Notes: generated from the sequence alone by a model not told the origin. Positions 1-31,555 are shown, counted from the stretch's first letter. The stretch: DNA of 64,000 bases from a virus (IMGVR_UViG_3300044695_006747:1-64000), one strand, 5' to 3'. Translations and numbers: made by a program.

Positions 1-42
1 TATTGGTCGTGGTGAGGACGCTATCCCCCATAGATTAGCATT

Positions 43-70
43 ACTATACAGCGTATAAGCCCGCTGTCAA
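43..70 (-). promoter_or_regulatory. sigma70-type promoter TTGACA-16-TATAGT
   Basis: Minus-strand hexamers with 16-bp spacer; target lies off the window edge. Confidence 0.6.
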
Positions 71-74
71 CCCC

Positions 75-499
75 ACGCTGCATAACAGCCGTAGGTTTAT
101 CGTAATGGCTTATCCTAATCTAGTCCCAGGCATGGACCCACGAAAGTTTATGACTAGACAGGCTCCTTACTGCAACTTTCCCAGTGTGACGATTCTTTAA
201 CATCTCTTGGCGAGTTCTCTCGTCTAGTCTTTGTATTGTAAATGCGGCGGGATTTTACCCACACTTCCCTCTGGGGGTCTAACGAACGATGATGGTAGTA
301 CTCCCTCTCACCGTCGGCTGCTCAACGCTTAACCTACGCATTATGTTTTAAGGGACGGATGGATTCGTTGATGCTATGGCGTCACAGGCATCTGCCTCAG
401 CCCGCGCTCTCAACTTGACCATCTACTTCACTACCGTTTACCGGGAGTTGCTCACGCAACCTCGCAGTCCCTTTTGATTTGTCAATGATCGCTTCGAAC
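75..499 (-). ncRNA. Candidate structured ncRNA
   Basis: No ORF over about 25 aa follows the promoter at 506-533. Several helices: AAGGGAC/GTCCCTT, GTTGC-GTGA-GCAAC (GNRA loop), CGTAGGTT/AACCTACG, GACTAGAC/GTCTAGTC. Confidence 0.35.
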
Positions 500-505
500 T
501 CATGT

Positions 506-533
506 ATTCTACAATCTATTATCGGCTTGTCAA
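506..533 (-). promoter_or_regulatory. sigma70-type promoter TTGACA-16-TAGAAT
   Basis: Consensus hexamers, CCGATA in spacer, AT tract upstream. Confidence 0.8.
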
Positions 534-556
534 GAAAAAAAATCCAGAAAAAAAGT

Positions 557-600
557 CTGCCATTTTGGCAGAAATCGCGGCCCCTCTGCCATTTCGGCAG
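557..600. repeat. Palindrome pair 1 (CTGCCATTTTGGCAG-N14-CTGCCATTTCGGCAG)
   Basis: Direct reading; spacer AAATCGCGGCCCCT. Confidence 0.95.
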
Positions 601-612
601 GCGGGGTTTCTT

Positions 613-1101
613 TTAGGCTTCTACCTCATCATCAGCAAAAAAGTCTGTCAAACCAAAATCATTCCAAATAGCAATAGGAATCATATCCTTATTAGTATAT
701 TCGATATAGTTATCAAAACCATTATCATAAATACCACAAAAAGCCATACCCGGCTCAAAATAAGAAGCCTTTACATTATAGCCTAACTCTACCAGTTTTT
801 CATACAAACCAGTAGGAGGAGCCCAAGCACTATCGAACGTGGTACTAACTTGATTACCAACCCGTGTAGCCTTCAATCCATGCCATTCTTCCCTATCTGT
901 ACCAATATCAGCCCCAATATCCCACTTGGTTCCCCAGTTATTCACACAAAAATCATACCATTTTCCATTGTCATAATAATCTTCTGGCATAGGAATAAAC
1001 TCATTGCAAACCTTGCCAGCATTGTATGCTCGCTCAAAACGATCCACCATAGCGGGATCAGCGTGTTCAACGGTCAACTTGTTCAAGCACCAGTTGGGCA
1101 T
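613..1101 (-). CDS. YubB/DUF1281-type ferredoxin-like domain protein
   Basis: MPNWC N-terminus, WYDFCVNNWGTKWD, FDSAWAPP and Y-x-EPG motifs typical of this family; GGAAG upstream. Confidence 0.7.
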   Translation of the reverse strand: MPNWCLNKLTVEHADPAMVDRFERAYNAGKVCNEFIPMPEDYYDNGKWYDFCVNNWGTKWDIGADIGTDREEWHGLKATRVGNQVSTTFDSAWAPPTGLYEKLVELGYNVKASYFEPGMAFCGIYDNGFDNYIEYTNKDMIPIAIWNDFGLTDFFADDEVEA

Positions 1102-1112
1102 TTTTTCTTCCT

Positions 1113-1292
1113 TTAGTTTACACTAGGACGGGGCAACGGACGATCCACAAACAGCATAACGGTTTCCGCAATCTTGTCAATACCACTAGCAATCGTTTCG
1201 TATTGTTCTTCAGTATCCATACCGCTCATGCTGGTACTAATCACACAACAAGCAAACGTTTCCAAAATCTTAGCCAACTCGTCTCGTGTCAT
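1113..1292 (-). CDS. Hypothetical protein, 59 aa (MTRDELAKILETF...)
   Basis: Hand-translated; GGAG RBS; promoter at 1313-1340. Confidence 0.6.
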   Translation of the reverse strand: MTRDELAKILETFACCVISTSMSGMDTEEQYETIASGIDKIAETVMLFVDRPLPRPSVN

Positions 1293-1312
1293 TTTTGTTC
1301 TCCTGTGCTACG

Positions 1313-1340
1313 ATTCTACACTAATGTTATCGGTTGTCAA
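1313..1340 (-). promoter_or_regulatory. sigma70-type promoter TTGACA-16-TAGAAT
   Basis: Consensus hexamers, CCGATA in spacer. Confidence 0.8.
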
Positions 1341-1816
1341 GCCACCATAGCAATAGTTTTTCTGTGGTAGATTGTGGTGATGATATCCTGATTTTCCGCA
1401 TAGAACTTACGAGTTTTCATACTAGATTTGATCTGATCTTTAGGATACTTACAAATATACTCATAAGCATCCCTTACATGATCTTGTGACCAAAATCGGT
1501 CAACCAAATCCCCACACCGTACAGAAAACAGTATATCCACAAAACCCCGCTTATCCAGCACAATAAACAGAAAACGAATTTCTCTTTCTTCCCTGCTCAA
1601 ATCATAATACTTGCTAGGGTCAAGCCACTGTAGATCGGCCTGTTTCTTGCACTCTACCAAACAACCCAGCATATCATTACGATAATCGTACAACTTATGG
1701 CTAGAACGCTCCCATCCGTCAACCCTACTTAGAATAGAAGAAAGAATATTTTCCTTCCCCCCATAACCCTTCAGATTAGCCCTTGACAGGTTGTAAATTT
1801 GTTTTGCGGTGAGCAT
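1337..1816 (-). CDS. Hypothetical protein (likely leaderless)
   Basis: 159-aa ORF; ATG 6 nt downstream of the -10 box. Confidence 0.65.
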   Translation of the reverse strand: MLTAKQIYNLSRANLKGYGGKENILSSILSRVDGWERSSHKLYDYRNDMLGCLVECKKQADLQWLDPSKYYDLSREEREIRFLFIVLDKRGFVDILFSVRCGDLVDRFWSQDHVRDAYEYICKYPKDQIKSSMKTRKFYAENQDIITTIYHRKTIAMVA

Positions 1817-1822
1817 GATTAG

Positions 1823-1850
1823 AGTTTACATCTAAAAGATTTTTTGTCAA
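1823..1850 (-). promoter_or_regulatory. sigma70-type promoter TTGACA-16-TAAACT
   Basis: Hexamers with the same 16-bp spacer. Confidence 0.65.
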
Positions 1851-1856
1851 CAAATC

Positions 1857-1896
1857 TCGCTGACAACACCCATACCGCCCAAATCCGAAGGATTAG
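1857..1896. repeat. Class B upstream element, copy 1
   Basis: GCTGAC-N16-AAATCCGAAGGATTAG; aligns with 3496-3535 and 5155-5194. Confidence 0.7.
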
Positions 1897-1905
1897 CAGA
1901 AACAG

Positions 1906-1977
1906 CAGCCCCGTGGAGAATCGAACTCCAGTCTCTAGGATGAAAGCCTAGTATACTAACCACTATACGACGGGGCC
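1906..1977 (-). tRNA. tRNA-Glu (anticodon TTC), CCA not encoded
   Basis: Acceptor GGCCCCG/CGGGGCT, D-loop AGTGGTTAG, anticodon stem CTAGG/CCTAG with loop CT-TTC-AT, T arm TGGAG-TTCGATT-CTCCA, discriminator G. Confidence 0.93.
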
Positions 1978-1980
1978 AGA

Positions 1981-2136
1981 CTAACCAACCATTTTCTCAA
2001 TCCAAATATAACTACCATACTTATCCTGAGCCTTACGCATAGCATCGATTTCGCTCAGAGCAACAACATAACCAACAAATCGATTGTGTTGAAAAACACG
2101 CCACGAATAACCAGCATAACAGTTTGTAGTAATCAT
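1981..2136 (-). CDS. Hypothetical protein, 51 aa (MITTNCYAGYSW...), likely leaderless
   Basis: Hand-translated; ATG 6 nt from the -10 box; stop 3 nt before the tRNA. Confidence 0.6.
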   Translation of the reverse strand: MITTNCYAGYSWRVFQHNRFVGYVVALSEIDAMRKAQDKYGSYIWIEKMVG

Positions 2137-2142
2137 ACGTTT

Positions 2143-2170
2143 ATTCTAACAGTTGTTATCGGCTTGTCAA
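2143..2170 (-). promoter_or_regulatory. sigma70-type promoter TTGACA-16-TAGAAT
   Basis: Consensus hexamers, CCGATA in spacer. Confidence 0.8.
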
Positions 2171-2183
2171 GAGGAGAACTTTA

Positions 2184-2227
2184 TTGCCATTTTGGCAGAA
2201 ACCGCGGCCGGCCTGCCATTTTGGCAG
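2184..2227. repeat. Palindrome pair 2
   Basis: TTGCCATTTTGGCAG-AAACCGCGGCCGGC-CTGCCATTTTGGCAG. Confidence 0.95.
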
Positions 2228-2245
2228 AGCCTTAGCACAACCCCC

Positions 2246-2653
2246 TCAAAAGAGGAGGCTGGCCAAGCCGGTCTTGAAAGCAACCCCACCCAAGAGGGGA
2301 CGACGCACGTTGCGTGTACGCTCTGCGTAGAAGTTGCGAATCTTACCATCGGGCGTTTGGGCAGTCACAAGATGACGGCTACGCTCAAAGTTAGGATCAT
2401 CCTTACGATAGCGACTCTTGCTATTCAGGCGAGAAATGTAATCGTCAGAAAAACGATGCACTTCCAAAACCTTAGCCATGAATCGCTCAGGCAAACCCGT
2501 AACAGGCTGAACATATTCGAAGTTATAAACACTGCCAATCTTAGCATTCGTAAGCGTATCACGAAGACCACGATAGATATGAAACAGGCTGAAAGCCACA
2601 AGGCCAGCAACCACACCACCAGCAAACACAGCAAACATCGTAAAATCGTTCAT
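2246..2653 (-). CDS. Hypothetical protein with N-terminal membrane anchor
   Basis: Start moved to MNDFTMFAVF (AAGGA upstream, promoter 2694-2721); hydrophobic N-terminal segment. Confidence 0.65.
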   Translation of the reverse strand: MNDFTMFAVFAGGVVAGLVAFSLFHIYRGLRDTLTNAKIGSVYNFEYVQPVTGLPERFMAKVLEVHRFSDDYISRLNSKSRYRKDDPNFERSRHLVTAQTPDGKIRNFYAERTRNVRRPLLGGVAFKTGLASLLF

Positions 2654-2693
2654 AAGAACCCTTTCGTTTAGAAATCCTTCACTCAATAAAACT

Positions 2694-2721
2694 AGCATAC
2701 CACAAGAAAACTGTTTGTCAA
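2694..2721 (-). promoter_or_regulatory. sigma70-type promoter TTGACA-16-TATGCT
   Basis: Hexamers with 16-bp spacer. Confidence 0.65.
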
Positions 2722-3059
2722 GCCTGAACTGTTGCAGGCACCACACTTTCCATAAGATTCTTGGCAATCTCGTGGAAGTTGACAGCACAAACGCTAGCGT
2801 TCAGCAGATCGGCCCAAACCGTTCCGGTCACGTTAGCGTCATTCAAAATCCGTTCCATTTGATCGTTATGCTTCTCTTTGAGTTTTTCGGCCAGAATACA
2901 AGCAGCATCCTCGACCTTGCTAAAATGAACCTGTTCGGATGCTTGGTGATTATAAACTTCCTCAGCAAGCCGACGCCAGTACGCACTTTTCGATTCCGTG
3001 TTGTCGATCCACAACTGAACAGCCCACGTTTCGTAGTTAGAGTAGCCGTTGTAAGTCAT
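2718..3059 (-). CDS. Conserved phage protein of unknown function (YNGxxNYETWxxxLW motif)
   Basis: MTYNGYSNYETWAVQLWIDN start resembles a motif common in small phage proteins; AGGA RBS. Confidence 0.7.
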   Translation of the reverse strand: MTYNGYSNYETWAVQLWIDNTESKSAYWRRLAEEVYNHQASEQVHFSKVEDAACILAEKLKEKHNDQMERILNDANVTGTVWADLLNASVCAVNFHEIAKNLMESVVPATVQA

Positions 3060-3086
3060 TGTTGGTTCCTTTGGGGTGATGCTTCA

Positions 3087-3114
3087 AAGATACCATATAG
3101 ATCGACACTGTCAA
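3087..3114 (-). promoter_or_regulatory. sigma70-type promoter TTGACA-16-TATCTT
   Basis: Hexamers with 16-bp spacer, TCGATC in spacer. Confidence 0.6.
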
Positions 3115-3137
3115 ACAGAAAGTTGAAAAAATATTTG

Positions 3138-3181
3138 CTGCCATTTTGGCAGAAATCGCGGCCCGCCTGTCATTTTGGCAG
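3138..3181. repeat. Palindrome pair 3
   Basis: CTGCCATTTTGGCAG-AAATCGCGGCCCGC-CTGTCATTTTGGCAG. Confidence 0.95.
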
Positions 3182-3427
3182 ATAGGCTATTTCCTGACCG
3201 TTTTCGATCATAGCAGCATAAATAGCGATACGCTTATCTTTCTCTCGCTTCTCGATCTGATGATCGGTTTCTACACTGTCGCGTGAGTCACACTTATGTT
3301 CCAGATCGGCCAGCGAAACACCATCGGTGCGATTATCGCGGAAATCTTCAGGAAGCCAATCGTTTGGAACAACAATAACATCCTTGATCAGTCGCTCAAA
3401 CTCGGCCATCAGTTCGTAACCGTTCAT
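3170..3427 (-). CDS. Hypothetical protein
   Basis: 85-aa ORF, GAGGAG RBS; stop codon lies inside the palindrome. Confidence 0.65.
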   Translation of the reverse strand: MNGYELMAEFERLIKDVIVVPNDWLPEDFRDNRTDGVSLADLEHKCDSRDSVETDHQIEKREKDKRIAIYAAMIENGQEIAYLPK

Positions 3428-3450
3428 CTTTTTCTCCTCTTGATGAATAG

Positions 3451-3478
3451 ATTATACATTTAGAATCGGCATTGTCAA
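3451..3478 (-). promoter_or_regulatory. sigma70-type promoter TTGACA-16-TATAAT
   Basis: Perfect hexamers. Confidence 0.85.
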
Positions 3479-3495
3479 CAAAAGAAAACGGTTTT

Positions 3496-3535
3496 TCGCT
3501 GACTACAGCCACTCTCGCCAAATCCGTAGGATTAG
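3496..3535. repeat. Class B upstream element, copy 2
   Basis: GCTGAC-N16-AAATCCGTAGGATTAG. Confidence 0.7.
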
Positions 3536-3541
3536 GTAGGA

Positions 3542-3715
3542 CTAGTCGTAGTCCCTCATCGCTCGCCGGTTCTGGTCGCCGCGAGTTCGGCCACGCTTGG
3601 GGCGATTGTCGTGAGAGCCGCTACCGCTAATATGGTCGGAGTGTCCGCGACTCACTTCCCAAATCGGCTTCACATTCAGCCGAATCGAATCGTACTTTTT
3701 ATTTCGCTTGCTCAT
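3542..3715 (-). CDS. Small basic His/Arg-rich protein, 57 aa
   Basis: Hand-translated MSKRNKKYDS...GHSDHISGSGSHDNRPKRGRTRG; directly behind promoter 3725-3752. Confidence 0.6.
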   Translation of the reverse strand: MSKRNKKYDSIRLNVKPIWEVSRGHSDHISGSGSHDNRPKRGRTRGDQNRRAMRDYD

Positions 3716-3724
3716 GATGCCCTG

Positions 3725-3752
3725 ATTCTACACTAGTATCGGCCAGTGTCAA
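3725..3752 (-). promoter_or_regulatory. sigma70-type promoter TTGACA-16-TAGAAT
   Basis: Consensus hexamers, CCGATA in spacer. Confidence 0.8.
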
Positions 3753-3776
3753 TAGAAAAATCCAAAAATATTTTTC

Positions 3777-3820
3777 CTGTCATTTTGGCAGAAATCGCGG
3801 CCCCGCTGCCATTTTGGCAG
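3777..3820. repeat. Palindrome pair 4
   Basis: CTGTCATTTTGGCAG-AAATCGCGGCCCCG-CTGCCATTTTGGCAG. Confidence 0.95.
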
Positions 3821-3833
3821 ATCGGGGTTGTTT

Positions 3834-4166
3834 TCAGTAATCCTCGTTATAATCGCCGTAGAAACCGTAGTCCTCATCGGTTCCCCAGCCAGCACTGGCG
3901 AGGCCGGATTCGTGGTCGCCATCCATGCTGTCATAACCATCATCATCATAACCCTCATCTTCATTCATTTGATCACGGATTTCATCCAGCTCGTTTTCCG
4001 GCAAACCCCAAAAATCATTGTGATCATCATAGTTCACATCATCACGGTCGTGCGACTCATCATCAATCCACGGATAAATGGTACGCTCGGCCATCTCGTC
4101 GAAACGGTCAAAAGAATCCTGGCTCATCGTGTTCTCCTCATCGTGAAGGGGATCGGGGTGACTCAT
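3834..4166 (-). CDS. Highly acidic hypothetical protein
   Basis: About one third D/E, no Lys; C-terminal DGDHESGLASAGWGTDEDYG. Confidence 0.65.
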   Translation of the reverse strand: MSHPDPLHDEENTMSQDSFDRFDEMAERTIYPWIDDESHDRDDVNYDDHNDFWGLPENELDEIRDQMNEDEGYDDDGYDSMDGDHESGLASAGWGTDEDYGFYGDYNEDY

Positions 4167-4187
4167 GACTTATCCTTTCTACACTAA

Positions 4188-4388
4188 TCAAAACCGGTCG
4201 TCAAGGGGAGCAAACTCGTCAACAATGCCGACCACTTCGGCCCAATCCCAAAAGTCGGTCAGGTTGCTGGGATCATCAATCGGCTCGACCATCGGCTCGA
4301 CCGTACCATCGTCGGCCAGTTGAGAGAGCAAAGCGTTGATCGTGTCGGTATCATCGAGCAGACCAGCCATTCGCGGAAACTGATTCAT
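4188..4388 (-). CDS. Acidic hypothetical protein (MNQFPRMAG...)
   Basis: Start moved to the ATG with GGAG RBS behind promoter 4418-4445. Confidence 0.55.
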   Translation of the reverse strand: MNQFPRMAGLLDDTDTINALLSQLADDGTVEPMVEPIDDPSNLTDFWDWAEVVGIVDEFAPLDDRF

Positions 4389-4417
4389 CGTCGTTTCTCC
4401 GTTGGGGTGATGCTTTG

Positions 4418-4445
4418 ATTCTACAGTTAGATATCGGCTTGTCAA
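4418..4445 (-). promoter_or_regulatory. sigma70-type promoter TTGACA-16-TAGAAT
   Basis: Consensus hexamers, CCGATA in spacer. Confidence 0.8.
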
Positions 4446-4478
4446 GCAAAGAAAATGTAGTCAAAAAAAAGATTTTTT

Positions 4479-4494
4479 CGGCACACCGTTTGCT
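4479..4494 (+). promoter_or_regulatory. sigma54 -24/-12 box CGGCACACCGTTTGCT
   Basis: Matches YGGCAC-N5-TTGCW; 3 bp before a palindrome pair. Confidence 0.65.
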
Positions 4495-4497
4495 AGC

Positions 4498-4541
4498 CTG
4501 CCATTTTGGCAGCCGGGCCGCGGAAACTGCCATTTTGGCAG
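4498..4541. repeat. Palindrome pair 5
   Basis: Two exact CTGCCATTTTGGCAG; spacer CCGGGCCGCGGAAA. Confidence 0.95.
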
Positions 4542-4551
4542 CCCTTGATAT

Positions 4552-4629
4552 TTAGTGGATTAGGTAAACTGTGAGGCATCCAAAAATAAATGAACCACCG
4601 AAAATAATAATAAGATTATACTTAGTCAT
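4552..4629 (-). CDS. Small membrane peptide, 25 aa (MTKYNLIIIFGGSFIFGCLTVYLIH)
   Basis: Hand-translated; start overlaps the stop of the upstream peptide; AGGA RBS. Confidence 0.45.
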   Translation of the reverse strand: MTKYNLIIIFGGSFIFGCLTVYLIH

Positions 4630-4729
4630 TTTTATTCCTTATAGGAAAAACAAGATCACAAACAACGTAACTAGCAATAACGCCGCAAGCAAATCCCACA
4701 CCTATTTGTACCCAGTTCATATCGGCCAT
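4622..4729 (-). CDS. Small membrane peptide, 35 aa (MADMNWVQIGVGFACGVIASYVVCDLVF...)
   Basis: Hand-translated; hydrophobic core; purine-rich leader. Confidence 0.45.
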   Translation of the reverse strand: MADMNWVQIGVGFACGVIASYVVCDLVFPIRNKND

Positions 4730-4747
4730 CCCTTGCCCCTTTCTTTA

Positions 4748-5050
4748 TTAGGAGTTCACCAAAATATTATCTTCAAACTCTGTACCATCCTGCAAAAACC
4801 ATTCATACTTTCGCTGGTAAACTTTCACAGGAGAATACTGATTGATTCGCTTTTTCGTGGTATGGGTATGATATCCGCCACTATTCAACTTTACAAGCCC
4901 ATTCGGATAGAATCGTACAACGGCCGTACCATGCAACCGAATAGAAACACTGTTATCGTACTCGATTTCCGCATAGGTATTATTACCAACTTTACGAGTC
5001 TTACGATTCGTCTTACCGTGAACCAGAGTAACCGCTTCAGTATAGTTCAT
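4748..5050 (-). CDS. Conserved hypothetical phage protein (MNYTEAV...SGGYHTHTTKKRINQY)
   Basis: Start moved to the ATG with GGAG RBS. Confidence 0.65.
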   Translation of the reverse strand: MNYTEAVTLVHGKTNRKTRKVGNNTYAEIEYDNSVSIRLHGTAVVRFYPNGLVKLNSGGYHTHTTKKRINQYSPVKVYQRKYEWFLQDGTEFEDNILVNS

Positions 5051-5088
5051 TTTTCTACTCCAATGAAAGCAACCAAACCACACTAAGA

Positions 5089-5117
5089 ATCATACTACCC
5101 GCAATCCACACTGTCAA
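5089..5117 (-). promoter_or_regulatory. sigma70-type promoter TTGACA-17-TATGAT
   Basis: Hexamers; only intergenic copy with a 17-bp spacer. Confidence 0.55.
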
Positions 5118-5154
5118 TACCAATCCGATCAAGATTTCCATTAGGCCCTCATTT

Positions 5155-5194
5155 TGGCTGACTATAGCCCACCTTGCCAATCCGATAGGATCGG
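5155..5194. repeat. Class B upstream element, copy 3 (degenerate)
   Basis: GCTGAC-N16-AATCCGATAGGATCGG. Confidence 0.55.
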
Positions 5195-5224
5195 ATAAGA
5201 CAAATCAACCCCCACAACAGGGGA

Positions 5225-5440
5225 CTATGAAACCCCCATCCAAGCGGCATTTTCCAGACAGTAAATATAAAACATATCATTCAGTATTTCCCGATAGTTA
5301 CTATCGGTCAACCGACGACGATCCCTAGTAGACTCACATTCAGCATATAGCCTACCATCTGGCGTGCCGATAAACGTCACGTTATGGCTTTCGCTTCCCC
5401 AAATCTGCTTCAACGCATCACGAAACTTGTTGATTTCCAT
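5225..5440 (-). CDS. Hypothetical protein (MEINKFRDAL...)
   Basis: Start moved to the ATG with AGGAG RBS behind promoter 5472-5499. Confidence 0.6.
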   Translation of the reverse strand: MEINKFRDALKQIWGSESHNVTFIGTPDGRLYAECESTRDRRRLTDSNYREILNDMFYIYCLENAAWMGVS

Positions 5441-5471
5441 TTTTCTTTCTCCTGCTACTAGGTATATCGGT

Positions 5472-5499
5472 ATTCTACCAGCCATCCCTTGAATGTCAA
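5472..5499 (-). promoter_or_regulatory. sigma70-type promoter TTGACA-16-TAGAAT
   Basis: TTGACATTCAAG subtype; CCGATA just downstream of -10. Confidence 0.8.
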
Positions 5500-5532
5500 A
5501 CAAAAAAAATAGCAGAATAATATTTTGTGGTT

Positions 5533-5548
5533 TGGTACGGATTTTGCT
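5533..5548 (+). promoter_or_regulatory. sigma54 -24/-12 box TGGTACGGATTTTGCT
   Basis: Matches consensus with a C-to-T variant; 5 bp before a palindrome pair. Confidence 0.65.
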
Positions 5549-5553
5549 GGTGG

Positions 5554-5597
5554 CTGCCATTTTGGCAGAAATCGCGCGCCGCCTGCCATTTTGGCAG
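5554..5597. repeat. Palindrome pair 6
   Basis: Two exact copies; spacer AAATCGCGCGCCGC. Confidence 0.95.
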
Positions 5598-5609
5598 TAT
5601 TACTTTTCC

Positions 5610-5837
5610 TTATGATGCCTTACCAGCGTATGTAATATAATCTTCCCTATTATTATAACCATGATATCTATATGTAGCACAAGTCATAAACTGTATTACA
5701 TCTTTCATCTTATCAAAAGTGTAACAAGCATGAGTAATCTTACTACGCAGAACATACTTTACAATCTGGCCATCAAAATGCAGATTATAGTTATTCTCTT
5801 CTGCTTTGTTCTCAATATCAACGATTCTATATCTCAT
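5610..5837 (-). CDS. Hypothetical protein (MRYRIVDIENK...), AT-rich
   Basis: AGGA RBS at the end of the upstream ORF. Confidence 0.5.
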   Translation of the reverse strand: MRYRIVDIENKAEENNYNLHFDGQIVKYVLRSKITHACYTFDKMKDVIQFMTCATYRYHGYNNREDYITYAGKAS

Positions 5838-5850
5838 GTTACTATTCCTT

Positions 5851-6024
5851 TCAGCCAAACTGCTCATACTCTTCATCACTCAAATACGGCTCATTTGGAC
5901 GATAGCAGTTGTAACTACCATAATGGTCAGCATTAGTCTCATAATCACACTCTCGCCCACAACGCGAACAAGTAGGCTCATAATCAACAATATCAACCCT
6001 AACACCACAACAGTTACTATTCAT
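5851..6024 (-). CDS. Small Cys-rich (zinc-ribbon-like) protein, 57 aa
   Basis: Hand-translated MNSNCCG...CSRCGRECD; GAGG RBS. Confidence 0.6.
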   Translation of the reverse strand: MNSNCCGVRVDIVDYEPTCSRCGRECDYETNADHYGSYNCYRPNEPYLSDEEYEQFG

Positions 6025-6026
6025 AC

Positions 6027-6218
6027 TCAAACCTCTGCGTAATCGGTCAACTGATCCTGATTAAACAGTCCGAACTGACCATTTTCATCCTTAACAAAAA
6101 ACATAACAAGCGGCTTACCATTCTCGATAATAACATCGAAACTAGTAACAGTAACCTTGCGACCCGAAAGAGTCTTAGCGGTTATGGTCATGACGCTGGT
6201 AATATCGTTGGTAATCAT
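6027..6218 (-). CDS. Hypothetical protein
   Basis: 63-aa ORF abutting its neighbours. Confidence 0.55.
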   Translation of the reverse strand: MITNDITSVMTITAKTLSGRKVTVTSFDVIIENGKPLVMFFVKDENGQFGLFNQDQLTDYAEV

Positions 6219-6227
6219 TTTTATACC

Positions 6228-6299
6228 TTAGAGCGAGAGATAAACGGCCGAAACCACACTGAACAGCATAACAAATGCAAGAGAGATTGTCAAGACCAT
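6228..6299 (-). CDS. Small membrane peptide, 23 aa (MVLTISLAFVMLFSVVSAVYLSL)
   Basis: Hand-translated; GAGGAG RBS; fills the gap exactly. Confidence 0.4.
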   Translation of the reverse strand: MVLTISLAFVMLFSVVSAVYLSL

Positions 6300-6308
6300 T
6301 TTTACTCC

Positions 6309-6548
6309 TCAAACCCCCACACTAGGGGGACTACTCTTGAAGTTGAGTCGAGATTGCAAATGTAACTCGTCAAGAACGAAACCGACCGCACGATCCCTGC
6401 TACCACGGAAAACGTAGTATTTCATACGAATATCGAATAGCGAAACCGTGCCATCCGTTTCGGGATGCACAGTAAAACCGGCACGATAAGCGTAACCATT
6501 CAAGCGACCGGCGACAGTTGAGCGGGAAGGGATTTTCTTGACTTTCAT
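6309..6548 (-). CDS. Hypothetical protein
   Basis: 79-aa ORF, polypurine leader, promoter 6570-6597. Confidence 0.65.
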   Translation of the reverse strand: MKVKKIPSRSTVAGRLNGYAYRAGFTVHPETDGTVSLFDIRMKYYVFRGSRDRAVGFVLDELHLQSRLNFKSSPPSVGV

Positions 6549-6569
6549 TTTCTTTCTTTCTTTCCTACT

Positions 6570-6597
6570 ATTCTACCAAACTTTTCTATCTAATCAA
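6570..6597 (-). promoter_or_regulatory. sigma70-type promoter TTGATT-16-TAGAAT
   Basis: Hexamers with 16-bp spacer. Confidence 0.65.
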
Positions 6598-6614
6598 CCC
6601 CCACTATTGTGGGA

Positions 6615-6818
6615 CTACCATTGATTTCGACGATACTCGTCGTACTCCTCCTGCTCCTCACGACGCTGGCGAGCGGTAACAGGAGGGCCATAGCCCTCGT
6701 TGTATGCGTCAACAGCCGCATCGTAAGCCTCACCGCCACCATCATCACAATGCTCACCGCAACGGGGGCAAATATCCTGAAAATGAACCGGAACACCACA
6801 GCAATCACTAATAATCAT
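6615..6818 (-). CDS. Small Cys-rich (zinc-ribbon-like) protein
   Basis: SDCCG...CPRCGEHCD; promoter 6856-6883. Confidence 0.65.
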   Translation of the reverse strand: MIISDCCGVPVHFQDICPRCGEHCDDGGGEAYDAAVDAYNEGYGPPVTARQRREEQEEYDEYRRNQW

Positions 6819-6855
6819 CTTTCTCTCTCTTTCTTTCTCTTTCTTCTATATCGAC

Positions 6856-6883
6856 ATTATACCAAACACAACTTGAATGTCAA
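6856..6883 (-). promoter_or_regulatory. sigma70-type promoter TTGACA-16-TATAAT
   Basis: Perfect hexamers; TTGACATTCAAG subtype. Confidence 0.85.
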
Positions 6884-6915
6884 ACAAAAAAAATCGGTTG
6901 AAAAAAAGTTTTTTG

Positions 6916-6974
6916 TGGCACGGTATTTGCTAGTAGCAAACCGCGTACCAAAAAAGTTTGGCACAAGATTTGCT
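6916..6974. promoter_or_regulatory. Cluster of three sigma54 boxes: 6916-6931 (+), 6935-6950 (-), 6959-6974 (+)
   Basis: TGGCACGGTATTTGCT, TGGTACGCGGTTTGCT (minus strand) and TGGCACAAGATTTGCT. Confidence 0.7.
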
Positions 6975-6978
6975 GTGG

Positions 6979-7043
6979 CTGCCATTTTGGCAGTCGCCGC
7001 GCGGTTTCTGCCATTTTGGCAGTCAAGGCTGCCAAGTTGACAG
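6979..7043. repeat. Palindrome pair 7 plus degenerate third copy
   Basis: Exact copies at 6979-6993 and 7008-7022, spacer inverted (TCGCCGCGCGGTTT); CTGCCAAGTTGACAG at 7029-7043. Confidence 0.9.
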
Positions 7044-7062
7044 AACCCCTCTCGTGGGTGGG

Positions 7063-7383
7063 TCACCCCTCCCAAGCGAACGGGCTAATCTCCTCCCCCA
7101 TAGTGAGGGTGGCCTCATATTGTGACCGCAAAGCCTCCACCCTCTCCCGACTTCCCGGCTTGCCCACCTTCACAATCATCGTATCCTCACCCAAACCCAT
7201 CCGAGGGTCAACCTTTTCGGCCTTGACGTTGACGCTATCCCGCATGGCCGAGCGATTGAACTTCAACACCTTTTCGCTGCGAATCATACCGCCATCGGCA
7301 GTAGACTTGTCGCAGGGAATGGCGATACCGCTGAAGCAAAGGTAGGCTTGACGCTTGGCCTTTTCGATGATCGGGAAACTCAT
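7063..7383 (-). CDS. Hypothetical protein
   Basis: 106-aa ORF on the coding strand of the region; AGGA upstream. Confidence 0.6.
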   Translation of the reverse strand: MSFPIIEKAKRQAYLCFSGIAIPCDKSTADGGMIRSEKVLKFNRSAMRDSVNVKAEKVDPRMGLGEDTMIVKVGKPGSRERVEALRSQYEATLTMGEEISPFAWEG

Positions 7384-7448
7384 GATTCTTTTCCTATGGT
7401 GAAGTGAAAAACCGAATGTACCAAACTAGCCTAGACTGCTCAACCCCC

Positions 7449-7700
7449 TCACACGAGGCAGGGAGCCTCGGTGAACCAGACCTTGCAATCTTCAAGGTAG
7501 ATGCTCTTGTGGATCACGGGCATCTCGCCCACACTATACATACGATCATTTTCCAGACTATCGGCAAACCGAATCGTGACCAGCGTACCGCGAGCATATG
7601 CTGCAACCTTGACGATTTCGCCAGCATACGTCTTGCCGTTATTCTTCTCACACTCGAAACCGAAACCAACCTGAACACTTCCAAACTTCATCATCTTCAT
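7449..7700 (-). CDS. Small beta-rich (SH3/KOW-like) protein
   Basis: GAGGAG RBS; similar to 8243-8479. Confidence 0.6.
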   Translation of the reverse strand: MKMMKFGSVQVGFGFECEKNNGKTYAGEIVKVAAYARGTLVTIRFADSLENDRMYSVGEMPVIHKSIYLEDCKVWFTEAPCLV

Positions 7701-7721
7701 CTCTCCTCTTGTGATACTCTG

Positions 7722-7749
7722 ATTCTACATTAGATATCGTCGATTGCAA
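7722..7749 (-). promoter_or_regulatory. sigma70-type promoter TTGCAA-16-TAGAAT
   Basis: Hexamers with 16-bp spacer. Confidence 0.7.
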
Positions 7750-7812
7750 GAAAAAAAAATAGGAAAAAATCCGTTGGTGAAAACTTCATCGCTGTCATAT
7801 TGGCATGCCATT

Positions 7813-7828
7813 TGGCACGAGATTTGCT
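7813..7828 (+). promoter_or_regulatory. sigma54 -24/-12 box TGGCACGAGATTTGCT
   Basis: Perfect TGGCACG-N4-TTGCT; 4 bp before a palindrome. Confidence 0.75.
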
Positions 7829-7832
7829 GATG

Positions 7833-7900
7833 CTGCCATTTTGGCAGATTTCGCGCGATTTCTGCCATTTTGGCAGTCGCCTTGTCTGCCATTGTGGCAG
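7833..7900. repeat. Palindrome pair 8 plus third copy
   Basis: Exact copies at 7833-7847 and 7862-7876; CTGCCATTGTGGCAG at 7886-7900; a degenerate copy also at 7792-7806. Confidence 0.95.
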
Positions 7901-7963
7901 GTTCTAACCGCCCGGTTTGGGTGGTACAACCCACCCTTATGGGGGATAGGATAATACCCCCTC

Positions 7964-8164
7964 TCAAGAGCGGGGGTAAGTGTATCCAACGTAAACTAGG
8001 CTAATCTTTTCCCTCTCAGGAAACTTCTCAGCGGACAGATAACTCATAGCCTGAGTTTCATTGTCCGCACGAACACAACCGCGGCTTTCGCCATTGTAGA
8101 AAACATTCCAAGTACGAAACTTGCGAATCTTGGGAAGCGAACGGATGAAATCGTTAACGTGCAT
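7964..8164 (-). CDS. Hypothetical protein
   Basis: 66-aa ORF with polypurine leader and promoter 8205-8232. Confidence 0.6.
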   Translation of the reverse strand: MHVNDFIRSLPKIRKFRTWNVFYNGESRGCVRADNETQAMSYLSAEKFPEREKISLVYVGYTYPRS

Positions 8165-8204
8165 CTTTCTTTCTCTCTTTCTTTCTCTTACTCTTTATAT
8201 CGGT

Positions 8205-8232
8205 ATTCTACAATCCGATACTTGAATGTCAA
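8205..8232 (-). promoter_or_regulatory. sigma70-type promoter TTGACA-16-TAGAAT
   Basis: TTGACATTCAAG subtype; CCGATA downstream of -10. Confidence 0.8.
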
Positions 8233-8242
8233 CTAAAAAAAA

Positions 8243-8479
8243 TCACGATTCCAGAATCGTGTAATCGGTAGCATTGTCGTAAAACGAACGATGCTGGCCA
8301 TTGGCCAAACGCACGACGATCAAATCGTCATTAGCACCATGTTTGATACTAACAACCGTTCCAGCATAATCGTTACCAGAATCGCTTTTCCACGAAACCA
8401 TATCGCCCACCACGAAACGGACGCTAGATTCTACAGTTTTCATTTTCAACTTTCCCTTTTTGGTCATCATCGTAATCAT
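8243..8479 (-). CDS. Small beta-rich (SH3/KOW-like) protein, possibly leaderless
   Basis: ATG 6 nt from the -10 box; similar to 7449-7700. Confidence 0.6.
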   Translation of the reverse strand: MITMMTKKGKLKMKTVESSVRFVVGDMVSWKSDSGNDYAGTVVSIKHGANDDLIVVRLANGQHRSFYDNATDYTILES

Positions 8480-8485
8480 GCCATC

Positions 8486-8513
8486 ATTCTACAATATGGT
8501 ATCGGAATGTCAA
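8486..8513 (-). promoter_or_regulatory. sigma70-type promoter TTGACA-16-TAGAAT (outermost of the array)
   Basis: Consensus hexamers, CCGATA in spacer. Confidence 0.8.
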
Positions 8514-8565
8514 CTAAAAAAAATCACTCAAAATGGATTTGGTGAAAACTTCCCCGATCATGATT

Positions 8566-8581
8566 TGGCACAGGGTTTGCT
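8566..8581 (+). promoter_or_regulatory. sigma54 -24/-12 box TGGCACAGGGTTTGCT
   Basis: Matches consensus; followed only by a GGCAG half-site. Confidence 0.6.
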
Positions 8582-8698
8582 ACGGCAGTTCCCCACCTAT
8601 GGGGGGGTTTTTTTGTTTTCCTACCAATGGGGGGTATTTCCCCCAAAAACGCGGGGTGATGTAAACACAATACCGACCACCGCAATGAATTGGCCAGT

Positions 8699-8926
8699 TT
8701 ACTCAATAGTTTGAATATTTGACTGGTCTACCAATTTAATTTTTCTTGGTCGCCCACGGCTTTTCTTAATATTGAGCTTGCGGCGTTGACGTCGAATCAT
8801 GCTTTTAGTAACATTTTGCCCCGTCATTTCACTTAATTTTGCAGCTAATGTTTCATCATTCATTAGATTCTGGTTGTTAGAAATAAAGTCCAATTCGTTT
8901 TGTAGCCATTTCTTATAATTCGCCAT
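8699..8926 (-). CDS. Small putative DNA-binding protein (HTH-like plus AT-hook)
   Basis: Start moved to MANYKKW (AGGAG RBS); ETLAAKLSEMTGQNVTKSMIRRQR helix pattern; RGRPR motif. Confidence 0.55.
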   Translation of the reverse strand: MANYKKWLQNELDFISNNQNLMNDETLAAKLSEMTGQNVTKSMIRRQRRKLNIKKSRGRPRKIKLVDQSNIQTIE

Positions 8927-8942
8927 TTTTTTGCTCCTAAAA

Positions 8943-8970
8943 TTGACTAAAGTGTATAACTCATTATAAT
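8943..8970 (+). promoter_or_regulatory. sigma70-type promoter TTGACT-16-TATAAT for the sigma-factor operon
   Basis: Same 16-bp spacer; contains AGTGTAT late-type motif. Confidence 0.65.
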
Positions 8971-9002
8971 ATTGTGTTGGCCAAAAAACGCAAGGAGCTT
9001 TT

Positions 9003-9173
9003 ATGAAAAATGAACCAAATATTCCCGACATAGTAATTGACTCAATATTGACCACAAAAGCCCTAGGATCTGTACAAGATATATCAAAAGAGCTACAATT
9101 ACCAGACGGTAAAAATCTAGAAGAATTATTAAATGACCAAAAAGAAGAAGAAGACACAAAAGATACTAAATAA
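9003..9173 (+). CDS. Hypothetical acidic protein, 56 aa
   Basis: Hand-translated; AAGGAG RBS; overlaps the next gene by 41 nt. Confidence 0.45.
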   Translation: MKNEPNIPDIVIDSILTTKALGSVQDISKELQLPDGKNLEELLNDQKEEEDTKDTK

Positions 9174-9774
9174 TGGAGTAACAGAAGAAGAATTTTTAGA
9201 AGTTTTAAATAATATATCAAAAAGATTGGTCCATAAATTTAGATTCGGATATCACGATATTGATGATATGAAACAACAAGCCGCCATATTCGCTATGGAA
9301 GGTTTGGAAAAATTTGATAACACTAGGCCTCTAGAAAACTTTCTTTGGACCCACGTTCGAAATCGATTGTTTAACTACAAAAGAAACAACTACCAAAGGC
9401 CCGATAAACCCTGCTTAAGTTGTCCTTTTTACGACTTGTTATACAAAGAATCTAACAACCAGTGCTCAAAATACAAAAATAAAGATGACTGTGAATTATA
9501 TTTCTCATGGTCTGAACGAAATAATAGCAAAAAAAATATTATGACTTTTCAGAGCATAGAAAATACTTTTGAAAAAGAAGACCACAAAGATCCACTAGAT
9601 ATTATTAAAAACAAAGAAATTATTAGTTATCTTGATAATAATATTGTTAAACCAGAATTTAGAGAAAGCTATTTAAGATTAAAGAATGGATTAAAACTAA
9701 ACAAACCTCTATTGGAAAAATTAAAAAATCACATTATGGAATTGATGAAAGACTTTAATCATGACAGAGAATAG
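9133..9774 (+). CDS. Phage RNA polymerase sigma factor (sigma70 region 2-like) with Cys-rich insert
   Basis: DDMKQQAAIFAMEGLEKFDNTRPLENFLWTHVRNRLFNYKR is a region 2 pattern; CLSC...C...C follows. Confidence 0.7.
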   Translation: MTKKKKKTQKILNNGVTEEEFLEVLNNISKRLVHKFRFGYHDIDDMKQQAAIFAMEGLEKFDNTRPLENFLWTHVRNRLFNYKRNNYQRPDKPCLSCPFYDLLYKESNNQCSKYKNKDDCELYFSWSERNNSKKNIMTFQSIENTFEKEDHKDPLDIIKNKEIISYLDNNIVKPEFRESYLRLKNGLKLNKPLLEKLKNHIMELMKDFNHDRE

Positions 9775-25583: not shown

Positions 25584-26227
25584 TGGCATACTCTTTTAAT
25601 GGCTCAAATCAATATTTTAGCACTGTAACTGGTAGTCTATTCTCTGATTTGCCAATAACGATGGCTTGTTGGTTTATAACGTCTAACACTACTACTAATC
25701 AAGGATTATTGAATATTTGCGATAATACTACTGGAGGGCAAGGCATACGCTTAAATGCACAAGGAGCAGTAGCCGGTGACCCTATTCGTATTCTGTCGGT
25801 CGGAACCGCTACTGGAGCTGCTGATACCACAACTGGTTTTACGGCAAACACATGGACCCATGCTTGTGGTGTCTTTGCTAGTACGACCAGTCGTACTGTT
25901 TATATTAATGGGGGTAGTTCTGGTACTAATGCTACTAATTCTAGTGGTACCGGAGAAGATAGATTATTTCAAGGAGTGACTCGCGCAGCATCAGCATTTA
26001 CTAACTATTTTAGTGGATCATTAGCAGAAGTCGGAGTATGGAATGCTGCCTTAACAGCCGATGAGGTTTTATCTTTATCACGAGGAATCAGTCCATCATT
26101 AATAAGACCACAGAGTTTGACTATTTATGCTCCTTTAGTTAGAGATCTTATAGACAGAAGAAGTGGACTAACAATTACTAATAATAACACAGCAATAGTT
26201 TCTGATCATACAAGGATTTATTTATGA
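25583..26227 (+). CDS. LamG/concanavalin A-like virion protein
   Basis: TMACWF, WTHACGVF, VYINGG, FSGSLAEVGVWNAALTADEV. Confidence 0.8.
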   Translation: MAYSFNGSNQYFSTVTGSLFSDLPITMACWFITSNTTTNQGLLNICDNTTGGQGIRLNAQGAVAGDPIRILSVGTATGAADTTTGFTANTWTHACGVFASTTSRTVYINGGSSGTNATNSSGTGEDRLFQGVTRAASAFTNYFSGSLAEVGVWNAALTADEVLSLSRGISPSLIRPQSLTIYAPLVRDLIDRRSGLTITNNNTAIVSDHTRIYL

Positions 26228-28043: not shown

Positions 28044-28055
28044 TAGAGTATTTTT

Positions 28056-30919: not shown

Positions 30920-31022
30920 AATCTTTCTCCTGTGTTATATCGGTGTATCTATAATAAGATACACTGTGATTAATAATATTCTATCAAAAATTGGCCACTT
31001 ACTTTTTATAATAGGTAATAAT

Positions 31023-31541: not shown

Positions 31542-31555
31542 TACGGAGATATAAC

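Follow-up and report, generated by a model that had tools for sequence, protein, structure and literature searches.

The early region of the uncultured, virulent-type phage IMGVR_UViG_3300044695_006747 (whole genome 186,823 bp, about 187 kb) contains seven sequences that resemble -24/-12 promoters of the sigma-54 (RpoN) type. Six of these boxes lie on the plus strand, whereas the early genes of the window, the 64,000-nucleotide stretch of DNA analyzed here, are encoded on the minus strand. Since the genes reside on the other strand, there is no sense gene downstream of the plus-strand boxes in the window. What, then, reads such elements in a phage, and which role might they play among genes that they face head-on?

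Seven Sigma-54-Type Boxes in the Early Region

All seven boxes that a sequence-only reading of this DNA had proposed were found at their positions, four of them being perfect and three deviating by one mismatch each from the pattern TGGCAC-N5-TTGC(A/T), in which GG and GC are set one helical turn apart. The perfect copies are located on the plus strand at 6916..6931, 6959..6974, 7813..7828 and 8566..8581, the last of these being the terminal, junction-proximal box. Single mismatches are present in the plus-strand boxes at 4479..4494 (CGGCAC-N5-TTGCT, deviating at -26; the orthologues in relatives read TGGCAC) and 5533..5548 (TGGTAC-N5-TTGCT), and in the minus-strand box at 6935..6950 (TGGTAC). 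This minus-strand box is arranged head-to-head with box 6916, the -12 elements being separated by 5 nt (TTGC-TAGTA-GCAA), and box 6916 is the first of a > < > triple that recurs in relatives. From dinucleotide-preserving shuffles, 0.01 perfect and 0.52 one-mismatch sites are expected in positions 1-8700, against 4 and 7 observed, so that the boxes stand far above chance in a composition-matched comparison. No further perfect TGGCAC-N5-TTGC match was found elsewhere in the whole genome.

The plus-strand boxes stand back to back with minus-strand, sigma-70-type early promoters (TTGACA-N16-TAGAAT), which are located at 4418..4445 (box 4479), 5472..5499 (box 5533), 6856..6883 (boxes 6916-6974), 7722..7749 (box 7813; the -35 sequence is TTGCAA) and, for the first cassette, at 8486..8513 (box 8566). 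All six point away from these promoters and against the minus-strand genes, in keeping with the orientation that had been claimed for them. The minus-strand promoters score 11-12/12 for the sigma-70-type match; on the plus strand of positions 1-8600 such matches are few and weak (best, 10/12). The minus arm opens with the gene (8699..8926, minus strand) for p75, an HTH protein of 75 aa that comprises three helices and a basic RGRP tail and is conserved in 321 viral contigs. Divergent from it, the late arm opens with the gene (9133..9774, plus strand) for a phage sigma-70-family protein possessing region 2 and a Cys-rich insert; this gene has its own sigma-70-type promoter at 8943-8970 on the plus strand.

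Boxes 4479, 5533, 6959 and 7813 end 3, 5, 4 and 4 bp, respectively, before a palindrome pair (4498..4541, 5554..5597, 6979..7022 and 7833..7876), a placement that had likewise been recognized at the outset. The pairs consist of two copies of CTGCCATTTTGGCAG, which at 4498..4541 are separated by 14 bp that include a CCGCGG core; the latter two elements are extended by a third copy (at 7029-7043, where it is degenerate, and at 7886-7900) to 6979..7043 and 7833..7900. When 12 nt are counted off from the C in the GC of the -12 element, the predicted start coincides with the first T at the palindrome center, as proposed; relative to this start, the nearby double palindrome occupies +1 to +44. TTTGGCA is common to the box and to the right half of each palindrome. 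Double palindromes devoid of a sigma-54-type box are found at 557-600, 2184-2227, 3138-3181 and 3777-3820, and more of them at 179016-185739 of the genome. The double palindrome was also considered as an NtrC-type enhancer (UAS) and rejected: its dyads are 29 bp apart but begin only 3-5 bp past the end of the box (TTGCT) rather than 80-150 bp upstream, the pairs also occur without a box, and no bacterial chromosome carries the pair. Among 185,579 bacterial species genomes, the double palindrome was absent except from one 1.8-kb MAG contig.

Upstream of boxes 7813 and 8566, GGTGAAAACTT starts at 7776 and 8541, again as described before. The first (GGTGAAAACTTCATC, 7776..7790) represents the inverted repeat GGTGAA-N3-TTCACC in half-degenerate form, and relatives possess fuller palindromes at this place; the second (GGTGAAAACTTCCCC, 8541..8555) is the same element. 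Box 8566 has no palindromes; an intrinsic terminator on the plus strand (CCCCACCTATGGGGGGG plus a T run, 8587..8620) comes next and closes the box array, and the predicted RNA start of this box lies inside the terminator stem. This box-terminator module is kept in six relatives, and the array ends at a plus-strand terminator in some sub-families, including that of the present phage. Under strict criteria, a terminator comes after 3 of 33 terminal boxes, compared with 0 of 68 non-terminal ones and 17 of 2200 random windows; in all, 3-8 of the 33 terminal boxes, and hence only part of them, are followed by one.

Conservation of the Boxes and Their Likely Reader

In the phage family, 44 non-redundant early arms (386 kb) contain 140 boxes, compared with about 1 expected, and at least one box is present in 35 of these arms; the late-gene side contains 0 boxes in 408 kb. 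Among the 65 distinct instances from the family, the GG at -25/-24, the A at -22 and the TTG at -15 to -13 are invariant or nearly so, and -12 is mostly C; informative positions extend from -28 to -21 and from -16 to -12, with weakly informative ones at -20 to -17. The core is thus fixed and the 5-bp spacer nearly free, a pattern as in real sigma-54 promoters. The boxes carry the T-tract form TTTGC, and their variants TGGCAT and TGGTAC are also represented among experimentally bound Salmonella and E. coli sites (PMC3844500; PMC4591121). This comparative evidence supports the assignment of the boxes as putative sigma-54 sites.

In sister sub-families, the identical box adjoins different inverted repeats, and head-to-head box pairs with the 5-nt gap occur in more than 120 viral contigs; among 30 long contigs with such pairs, p75 is present in four and any relative of the sigma-like protein in eight. 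Because the box thus stands beside differing repeats and occurs in so many contigs, most of them without the regulators of the family, its reader would most likely be a conserved host factor, namely sigma-54. It is conceivable, if rather unlikely, that another phage or host DNA-binding protein reads the box instead, with the -24/-12 match being chance-like and the TGGCA half of the palindrome perhaps read as well. The shared TTTGGCA, three TGGCA copies spaced 29 +/- 1 bp apart, a right palindrome arm (TGGCAG) that is better conserved than the left one (30 vs 84 substitutions in 290 instances) and convergent box pairs resembling dimer operators would all suit such a protein. The match, however, spans both elements at the exact spacing together with the flanking T's, its variation tracks that of sigma-54 sites, and sub-families without TGGCA palindromes retain the same box. 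Furthermore, most unrelated viruses with box pairs possess neither p75 nor the sigma-like protein, the p75 model is that of a generic three-helix HTH without a signal of the sigma-54 DNA-binding domain, and single boxes far outnumber pairs (81 vs 11), which fits a monomeric two-element reader.

Strong sigma-70-type promoters that are preceded by an A/T-rich tract and accompanied by a stem-loop, the combination that defines PeSL-type cassettes (PMC2839356), are repeated here between small ORFan genes, and contigs from one wastewater run link the cassettes differently, at or near the palindromes. Shuffling of the PeSL type is documented (PMC2839356), and the repeated, apparently shuffled modules might suggest that the boxes are functionless passengers of a mobile cassette, which would comprise palindromes, A/T tract and promoter and be multiplied through recombination in the manner of T4-type PeSLs. 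We consider this very unlikely: passenger DNA would drift, yet the box core is invariant where p75 is only 50-60% identical among family members and where spacers and flanks differ, and box-less modules exist in the same genome and are distributed by position.

No sigma-54 gene was found in the phage or in three complete relatives, and a Sigma54_activat search retrieved no activator ATPase from the complete family genomes G000, G001, G002 and G020: the AAA+ match of G000 is RuvB, G002 gave one weak AAA+ match, and G001 and G020 gave nothing. There is also no recognizable enhancer 80-150 bp upstream of the boxes. Sigma-54 activators without a DNA-binding domain can act on any sigma-54 closed complex (PMC3844500), and a host activator of this kind is possibly the trigger. 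The host itself is possibly a member of the Planctomycetota; a DUF1501 gene shares 80-81% identity with cellular-scale contigs and with a protein of a Planctomycetota-labelled MAG, and a model planctomycete carries rpoN (PMC2754498). Two tiny MAG contigs with pieces of the phage family are labelled as small-genome lineages; in the order of one such label, sigma-54 was found in 0 of 41 genomes, and these contigs are probably mis-binned.

Possible Roles of the Boxes

Across the relatives, the box keeps its position between a cassette end and the promoter that follows, and 101 boxes are antisense to the early genes, facing the junction, while 39 are sense (72:28). In the complete genomes G000, G001 and G002, boxes occur only in the 4-6 kb of the early arm that lie next to the junction, whereas the palindromes extend over 13-20 kb; in the distant relative G005, the box occurs in either orientation at the same place. 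Viewed against these data, two of the three roles that the sequence-only reading had envisaged, antisense promoters and roadblocks, are still viable; the third, a pure decoy function, fits worst (place, orientation bias and confinement) and is unlikely. Several strong sites per genome, multiplied by phage replication and possessing neither a productive gene downstream nor an activator, could titrate host sigma-54 with its bound core polymerase and thereby silence sigma-54-dependent stress or defence responses of the host. We give this very little credence, as a sponge requires no fixed place, orientation bias, junction confinement or terminator, all four of which are conserved; moreover, there are merely about 3-10 sites per genome, and sequestration of core polymerase would be costly to the phage as well.

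Our preferred explanation, advanced tentatively and with somewhat less than even confidence, is that the boxes are poised, activator-dependent antisense sigma-54 promoters that double as cassette boundaries. They would provide -24/-12 docking sites for host sigma-54 RNA polymerase at the borders of the first early cassettes, between the end of one cassette and the A/T tract plus sigma-70 promoter that introduce the following one, with most of them facing the early/late junction. Soon after DNA entry, host sigma-54 holoenzyme would occupy the strong TTTGC sites as stable closed complexes, and these would fire rightward upon the action of an activator, be it a host enhancer-binding ATPase, possibly a DNA-site-free one, or an unrecognized phage factor. 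Plus-strand antisense RNA would then run through the 4 kb of early cassettes closest to the junction and stop at 8587-8620, before the genes for p75 and the sigma-like protein, and the first early cassettes would be damped or shut off through collision and antisense pairing. What the sequences show is the motif with its statistics, conservation, placement and orientation, together with the terminator and the lack of phage genes for sigma-54 and an activator; occupancy by sigma-54, promoter firing, the activator and any consequence for the early genes are inferred. Among RNA runs, none was found to contain the region. In E. coli and Salmonella, it is established that holoenzyme binds sigma-54 sites located within or antisense to genes, and antisense regulation has been proposed there (PMC4591121).

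The inverted repeat over the start site could allow firing to be gated by a phage protein or by DNA structure. Gating by a palindrome binder, as initially suggested, may hold for the present sub-family but not for the others, since these carry other repeats and the box of G005 is found in either orientation.

Speaking against a promoter role, about 28% of the boxes are sense and the two members of a convergent pair cannot both be productive. For these reasons, and because of the two orientations in G005, docking is favored over promoter activity, and silent closed complexes may double as inter-cassette boundaries. The RNA start of the terminal box inside the terminator stem, and the occurrence of a terminator after only some terminal boxes, also count against the preferred explanation. 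In its strict form, which we regard as doubtful, the boundary explanation holds that the boxes are occupied by sigma-54, either free or as holoenzyme, but never fire, with the closed complexes halting read-through from the upstream cassette and shielding the next sigma-70 promoter, or occluding it when the box is sense. That sigma-54 can form complexes which are stable yet transcriptionally inactive is established (PMC4591121; PMC3844500). The tight-binding TTTGC form, the lack of a phage activator gene and of a classical enhancer, and a position that is invariant while orientation varies (72:28, G005, convergent pairs) are in line with it. Left unexplained by strict roadblocks are the orientation bias, the plus-strand terminator at the array end, and the restriction of boundaries to junction-proximal cassettes when distal ones share the promoters and palindromes. 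In addition, elongating polymerases usually dislodge promoter-bound polymerases rather than being blocked by them.

Comparison With Known Systems

Coliphage 186 provides an example of "sitting duck" interference between convergent promoters, pR and pL, both of which are sigma-70 promoters that open spontaneously. As in that phage, a promoter of the preferred, antisense kind would face stronger oncoming transcription, with mutual effects through collision or occlusion; unlike pR and pL, the phage box would hold a closed complex that needs an ATPase to open.

Bacterial RpoN promoters such as glnAp2, pspA, prpB and hypA share with the boxes the -24/-12 sequence TGGCAC/T-N5-TTGC(T/A), the invariant GG and GC, the tolerated variants and TTTGC. 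Like the phage boxes, many bacterial sigma-54 sites, including those mapped in E. coli and Salmonella, are antisense or have no gene downstream; in the bacteria, such sites are occupied in an inactive state (PMC4591121; PMC3844500). The phage boxes differ from bacterial sites in that they are clustered at early-cassette borders of a virulent-type phage and are mostly antisense, possess an inverted repeat over +1 within 4-6 bp, lack a recognizable enhancer or activator gene, and are in part arranged as > < > triples or as convergent pairs whose members are always 5 nt apart. The PeSLs of the T4-type phages RB49 and phi1 (Arbiol et al., 2010; PMC2839356) are likewise associated with small ORFan cassettes, a strong sigma-70-type promoter and an A/T-rich upstream tract, and they share with the phage modules GGGG...CCCC stem-loops and repetition in a hyperplastic early region; the PeSLs serve as recombination seams, as the phage modules may do. 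They contain neither a sigma-54 element nor a sequence-conserved double palindrome, and their stem-loops are proven terminators (PMC2839356).

We found no published phage description of such a use of sigma-54 polymerase, so that the boxes would suggest a way of exploiting this host enzyme that we have not encountered in any phage paper. A more far-reaching possibility, which we view as improbable, is that backward-facing sigma-54 closed complexes at cassette borders serve a large uncultured family and unrelated phages as a timing or insulating device with a non-classical trigger; release might then depend on a phage factor or on a hairpin or cruciform extruded from the start-site inverted repeat. 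If true, host sigma-54 polymerase would have been repurposed as a timing or insulating device for phage early genes, in related and unrelated phages alike.

Genome Organization and the Early Cassette Block

The IMG/VR genome record of the source phage, of which the window covers positions 1-64000, comprises 186,823 bp, with a 126-bp overlap between its ends. The late arm, which carries the packaging and structural genes, consists of plus-strand genes from 9133 to 76638, and all remaining genes form a minus arm that runs from about 8600 leftward via position 1 round to about 77000. Small ORFan genes fill the first part of this minus arm (about 179000-186823 plus 1-8600). Each early cassette possesses a near-consensus TTGACA-N16-TAGAAT promoter with an A/T tract upstream and a purine-rich ribosome-binding site. 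The G+C content of the early cassette block amounts to 43-47%, compared to 31-41% (mostly 31-38%) in the rest of the window; the shift is abrupt at about 8650, immediately ahead of the gene for p75, and the GC skew of the block (1-8600) is strongly negative. A blastn search with positions 4000-9000 against 50,697 phage records returned no match. A search for RNA runs containing this region recovered none, and one sequencing run (contigs, probably DNA; 6% of words) contained fragments of related phages only, with no strand or start information.

At the junction between the two arms lies a divergent gene pair that is kept in 80 of 80 related loci examined. The first gene of the minus (early) arm (8699-8926, minus strand) encodes p75, a protein of 75 amino acids with a predicted three-helix HTH fold and a basic RGRP tail. 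The first gene of the late arm (9133-9774, plus strand) encodes a protein of the sigma-70 family in which region 2 and a Cys-rich insert are recognizable and a clear region 4 is lacking. p75 might supply the missing DNA-binding part of this sigma-like protein, the two together forming a two-piece sigma factor.

An Rfam search recovered a tRNA-Glu (1905-1977) as the sole RNA family, with the same outcome at both thresholds. Several early promoters have a conserved element (TAATCCnnnGGATTTGG...GGCTGTAGTCAGCGAAA; about 45 nt) immediately upstream. It is present in four copies (1860-1905 and 3480-3540 in the window, and at about 181700 and 185550 of the genome) and may signal processing or termination. 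Two copies are next to a tRNA gene: the one at 1860-1905 comes straight after tRNA-Glu, and in the case of the copy at about 181700, the element and the promoter are separated by a tRNA-like sequence. Downstream of the consensus early promoter at 506-533, about 430 nt (75-500, minus strand) carry no clear ORF of at least 40 amino acids on that strand; a structured RNA was considered here and rejected in view of a folding-energy z of -0.95 and the lack of an Rfam match.

Seven Sigma-54-Type Boxes in the Early Arm

The sequence-only reading of this DNA had claimed seven boxes of the sigma-54 (-24/-12) type, and we recovered all of them: six on the plus strand at 4479, 5533, 6916, 6959, 7813, and 8566, and one on the minus strand at 6935. 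Those at 6916, 6959, 7813, and 8566 match TGGCAC-N5-TTGC perfectly, while the remaining three deviate at a single position (CGGCAC at 4479; TGGTAC at 5533 and 6935). They are in clear excess over shuffled sequence, with 0.01 perfect and 0.52 one-mismatch boxes expected from dinucleotide-preserving shuffles of positions 1-8700, and no further perfect match exists elsewhere in the whole genome. Also borne out were the claims that four boxes lie 3-5 bp ahead of a palindrome pair, which places the predicted +1 at the first T of the palindrome center, and that the six plus-strand boxes point in the direction opposite to both the sigma-70 promoters and the genes. No fixed distance separates box and sigma-70 promoter; the gaps group loosely at 31-33, 52-58, and 64 bp. 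Upstream of the box at 8566 stands GGTGAAAACTTC, and about 8 nt downstream of it comes the strongest plus-strand intrinsic terminator of the region (8587-8620).

Conservation of the Box Across the Phage Family

A palindrome scan of viral contigs revealed many relatives with palindromes and boxes on the same strand, and the family delimited by p75 comprises 321 viral contigs. From it we took 44 non-redundant early arms, 386 kb in total, and counted 140 TGGCA[CT]-N5-TTGC boxes in them, about one being expected, with at least one box in 35 of the arms; on the other side of p75, none was found in 408 kb. That the GG/GC spacing should be conserved in homologous regions, as the earlier reading implied, proved correct, since the core is kept in 65 distinct boxes adjoining palindromes. 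Within these 65 instances, TTT at -28 to -26, GG at -25/-24, C at -23, A at -22, TTTG at -16 to -13, and C at -12 are near-invariant or invariant, and the spacer is much freer. If the boxes were mere passengers of cassette shuffling, the core would not be held fixed while spacers and flanks drift, and we regard this explanation as highly improbable. The variants TGGCAT, TGGTAC, and CGGCAC also occur among sites bound experimentally in Salmonella and E. coli (PMC3844500; PMC4591121).

Sister sub-families within the p75 family possess no CTGCCA palindrome; they carry other inverted repeats, of the GTCGTAAGT...ACTTACGTC type and with CCTTACAA...GTAAGG upstream, and exactly the same box is found in the same place. 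Hence, the neighbors of the box co-vary with phage lineage, but the box itself does not. The boxes are a real, conserved, and non-random feature.

Placement and Orientation

In three complete genomes the boxes are limited to the junction-proximal end of the early arm. In the source genome they occupy 4479-8581, while the palindromes continue to 557 and on to 179016. Eight of the nine boxes of the relative G001 lie at 39026-42754, the ninth being isolated at 154612 (palindromes 21919-41895), and those of G002 span 30093-35682 (palindromes 22796-35723). Across the family, 72% of the boxes (101/140) face the junction and are thus antisense to the early genes. This conserved placement would not be needed if the boxes were a pure decoy for the host polymerase, a role that we consider very unlikely.

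A plus-strand terminator follows the junction-most box in the source genome, in G001, and in several other arms. Under a strict test it was present after three of the 33 terminal boxes (some eight on visual inspection) and none of 68 non-terminal ones, compared to 17 of 2200 random windows. The terminal module of G002 is the same, with a TGGTAT box.

The distant relative G005 keeps the order of palindromes, box, A/T tract, and sigma-70 promoter, with the box in either orientation or as a convergent pair. Its 19 boxes in 23 kb (loci L132/L133; e.g., 1-40 and 2027-2061) include both orientations and convergent pairs, and are always situated between a double palindrome and the next sigma-70 promoter. 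Single boxes outnumber convergent pairs 81 to 11 in the family. More than 120 viral contigs, ranging from complete genomes of 42 kb to records of 330-480 kb, contain convergent pairs whose gap is fixed at 5 nt, like the pair at 6916/6935; by our own estimate, the chance expectation for this 20-base pattern is below one.

Double Palindromes and Other Inverted Repeats

Most early promoters are preceded by a 44-bp element in which two copies of CTGCCATTTTGGCAG flank a 14-bp spacer whose core reads CCGCGG or CGCGCG. The genome contains 26 CTGCCATTTTGGCAG palindromes, every one with TTT on the plus strand; besides those at 557-7900, box-less pairs are present at 179016-185739. The right arm, TGGCAG, corresponds to the -24 core on the box strand, and the TGGCA of the box and of the right halves of both palindromes follow each other in a register of 29 +/- 1 bp (e.g., 7813, 7842, and 7871). 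Among 290 instances in relatives, the right arm has sustained 30 substitutions and the left arm (CTGCCA) 84. Both the far better conservation of the right arm and the 29-bp register leave some room for a box that is read by something other than sigma-54; we regard such a reader as unlikely.

Stem mismatches that keep a G-T pair number 54 on the TTT strand and 18 on the other. Neither this strand bias nor the inequality of the arms would be expected of a symmetric dimer site. In the four palindrome pairs that follow a box (4498-4541, 5554-5597, 6979-7022, and 7833-7876), the GC of the spacer is placed exactly 10 bp downstream of the TGGCAG GG on the plus strand, an arrangement resembling a weak -24/-12 site; the four box-less pairs (557-600, 2184-2227, 3138-3181, and 3777-3820) have GG at that plus-strand position and GC on the minus strand. 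We rejected the double palindrome as a host enhancer, as it was found in 185,579 bacterial and archaeal species genomes on only one 1.8-kb MAG contig. Stems of at least 5 occur in 44% of the downstream and 41% of the upstream box flanks, compared to 18% in random arm DNA, and the 40 nt downstream of boxes fold better (-6.5 versus -4.1 kcal/mol).

Candidate Readers of the Box

Among 30 long contigs with convergent pairs, p75 is encoded by four (one of the 12 complete ones) and any relative of the sigma-like protein by eight. We therefore rejected the sigma-like protein as reader of the box, and likewise p75, since boxes occur in many viruses devoid of it and its model is a generic HTH. A reading of TTTGCT as a T4 MotA box failed because no -10 element follows at the right distance. 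The same box beside lineage-specific repeats, the pairs in contigs without p75 or the sigma-like protein, and the excess of single boxes over pairs argue for a reader that is a conserved host factor and not a phage protein; the single-box excess is in line with a monomer that contacts DNA through two of its parts. Two elements only 5 bp apart are at odds with the geometry of the sigma-70 family, and sigma-54 is, to our knowledge, the sole factor that reads such a bipartite site. In terms of their sequence, the boxes have the properties of sigma-54 promoters, but a nearby enhancer and activator gene were not found. No sigma-54 DNA-binding or core-binding domain is encoded by the source phage or by three complete relatives (G001, G002, and G020). 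The same holds for enhancer-binding ATPases, apart from a weak hit in G002; the search for Sigma54_activat/AAA+ domains returned RuvB as the sole hit in the source genome, and the G002 hit is similar. The boxes thus appear to work like sigma-54 sites, although we do not claim membership in this class as proven. Most likely, they represent a set of host sigma-54 docking sites with an unusual, mostly antisense use at the borders of phage early cassettes.

Host Affiliation

The DUF1501 protein of the phage (genome 149279-150523, minus strand; locus L336:3280-4524) is 80-81% identical to proteins on contigs of bacterial size (up to 1.08 Mb) and to a Planctomycetota-labelled MAG protein. This identity suggests that genes were exchanged recently with the host lineage, which is possibly Planctomycetota; the model planctomycete Rhodopirellula baltica possesses an expressed rpoN gene (PMC2754498). 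Fragments of the phage family also lie on two very short MAG contigs labelled as small-genome lineages; one measures 1.8 kb and belongs to a 1.8-Mb MAG, and the other bears a RuvB labelled Paceibacterota. For one of these contigs, 41 genomes of the order given by its label were searched and sigma-54 was found in none, and 301 Paceibacterota genomes yielded one weak hit to the phage DUF1501. We did not take the host from these labels and read them as mis-binning, because the contigs are tiny and the phylum lacks the phage DUF1501.

A Proposed Model for Antisense Control of Early Genes

We tentatively favor a model in which host sigma-54 closed complexes fire antisense transcription over the first early cassettes. 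Host sigma-54 holoenzyme would dock on strong boxes of the T-tract type and form the stable closed complexes typical of this enzyme (PMC3844500; PMC4591121). An activator, either a host ATPase or an unrecognised phage factor, would then release rightward firing; the ATPase might be of a type without a DNA-binding domain, as such activators can activate any sigma-54 promoter (PMC3844500). Antisense transcription would proceed across the first 4 kb of early cassettes and stop at the terminator that precedes the genes for p75 and the sigma-like protein. Antisense firing would account for the orientation bias, the junction-side confinement, and the terminator. It does not explain why a quarter of the boxes are in sense orientation, why convergent pairs exist, or why the terminal box would start within the terminator stem. 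The main rival, in which the complexes never fire and serve as boundaries only, seems to us distinctly less probable.

Phages are known to run their transcription programmes with host sigma-70, phage sigma factors, phage polymerases, and anti-sigma proteins. Sigma-54 is near absent from the searchable literature on them, apart from isolated references to phage proteins with weak similarity to sigma-54 or to its regulators, and we found no description there of sigma-54 site arrays in phage early regions. The early cassettes around the boxes resemble the promoter-early stem-loops (PeSLs) of T4-type phages, which, in contrast to the cassettes described here, have no sigma-54 part (PMC2839356). 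Each module is a compact, self-contained unit, open to direct testing in E. coli or Salmonella by means of the sigma-54 tools already available. If the boxes are read by sigma-54, a widespread group of large environmental phages would exploit the one form of bacterial polymerase that binds DNA stably without firing, and would do so in a new kind of early-gene control via antisense shut-off or insulation. The box would then also be a sequence signature informing host range, because the host must possess rpoN.
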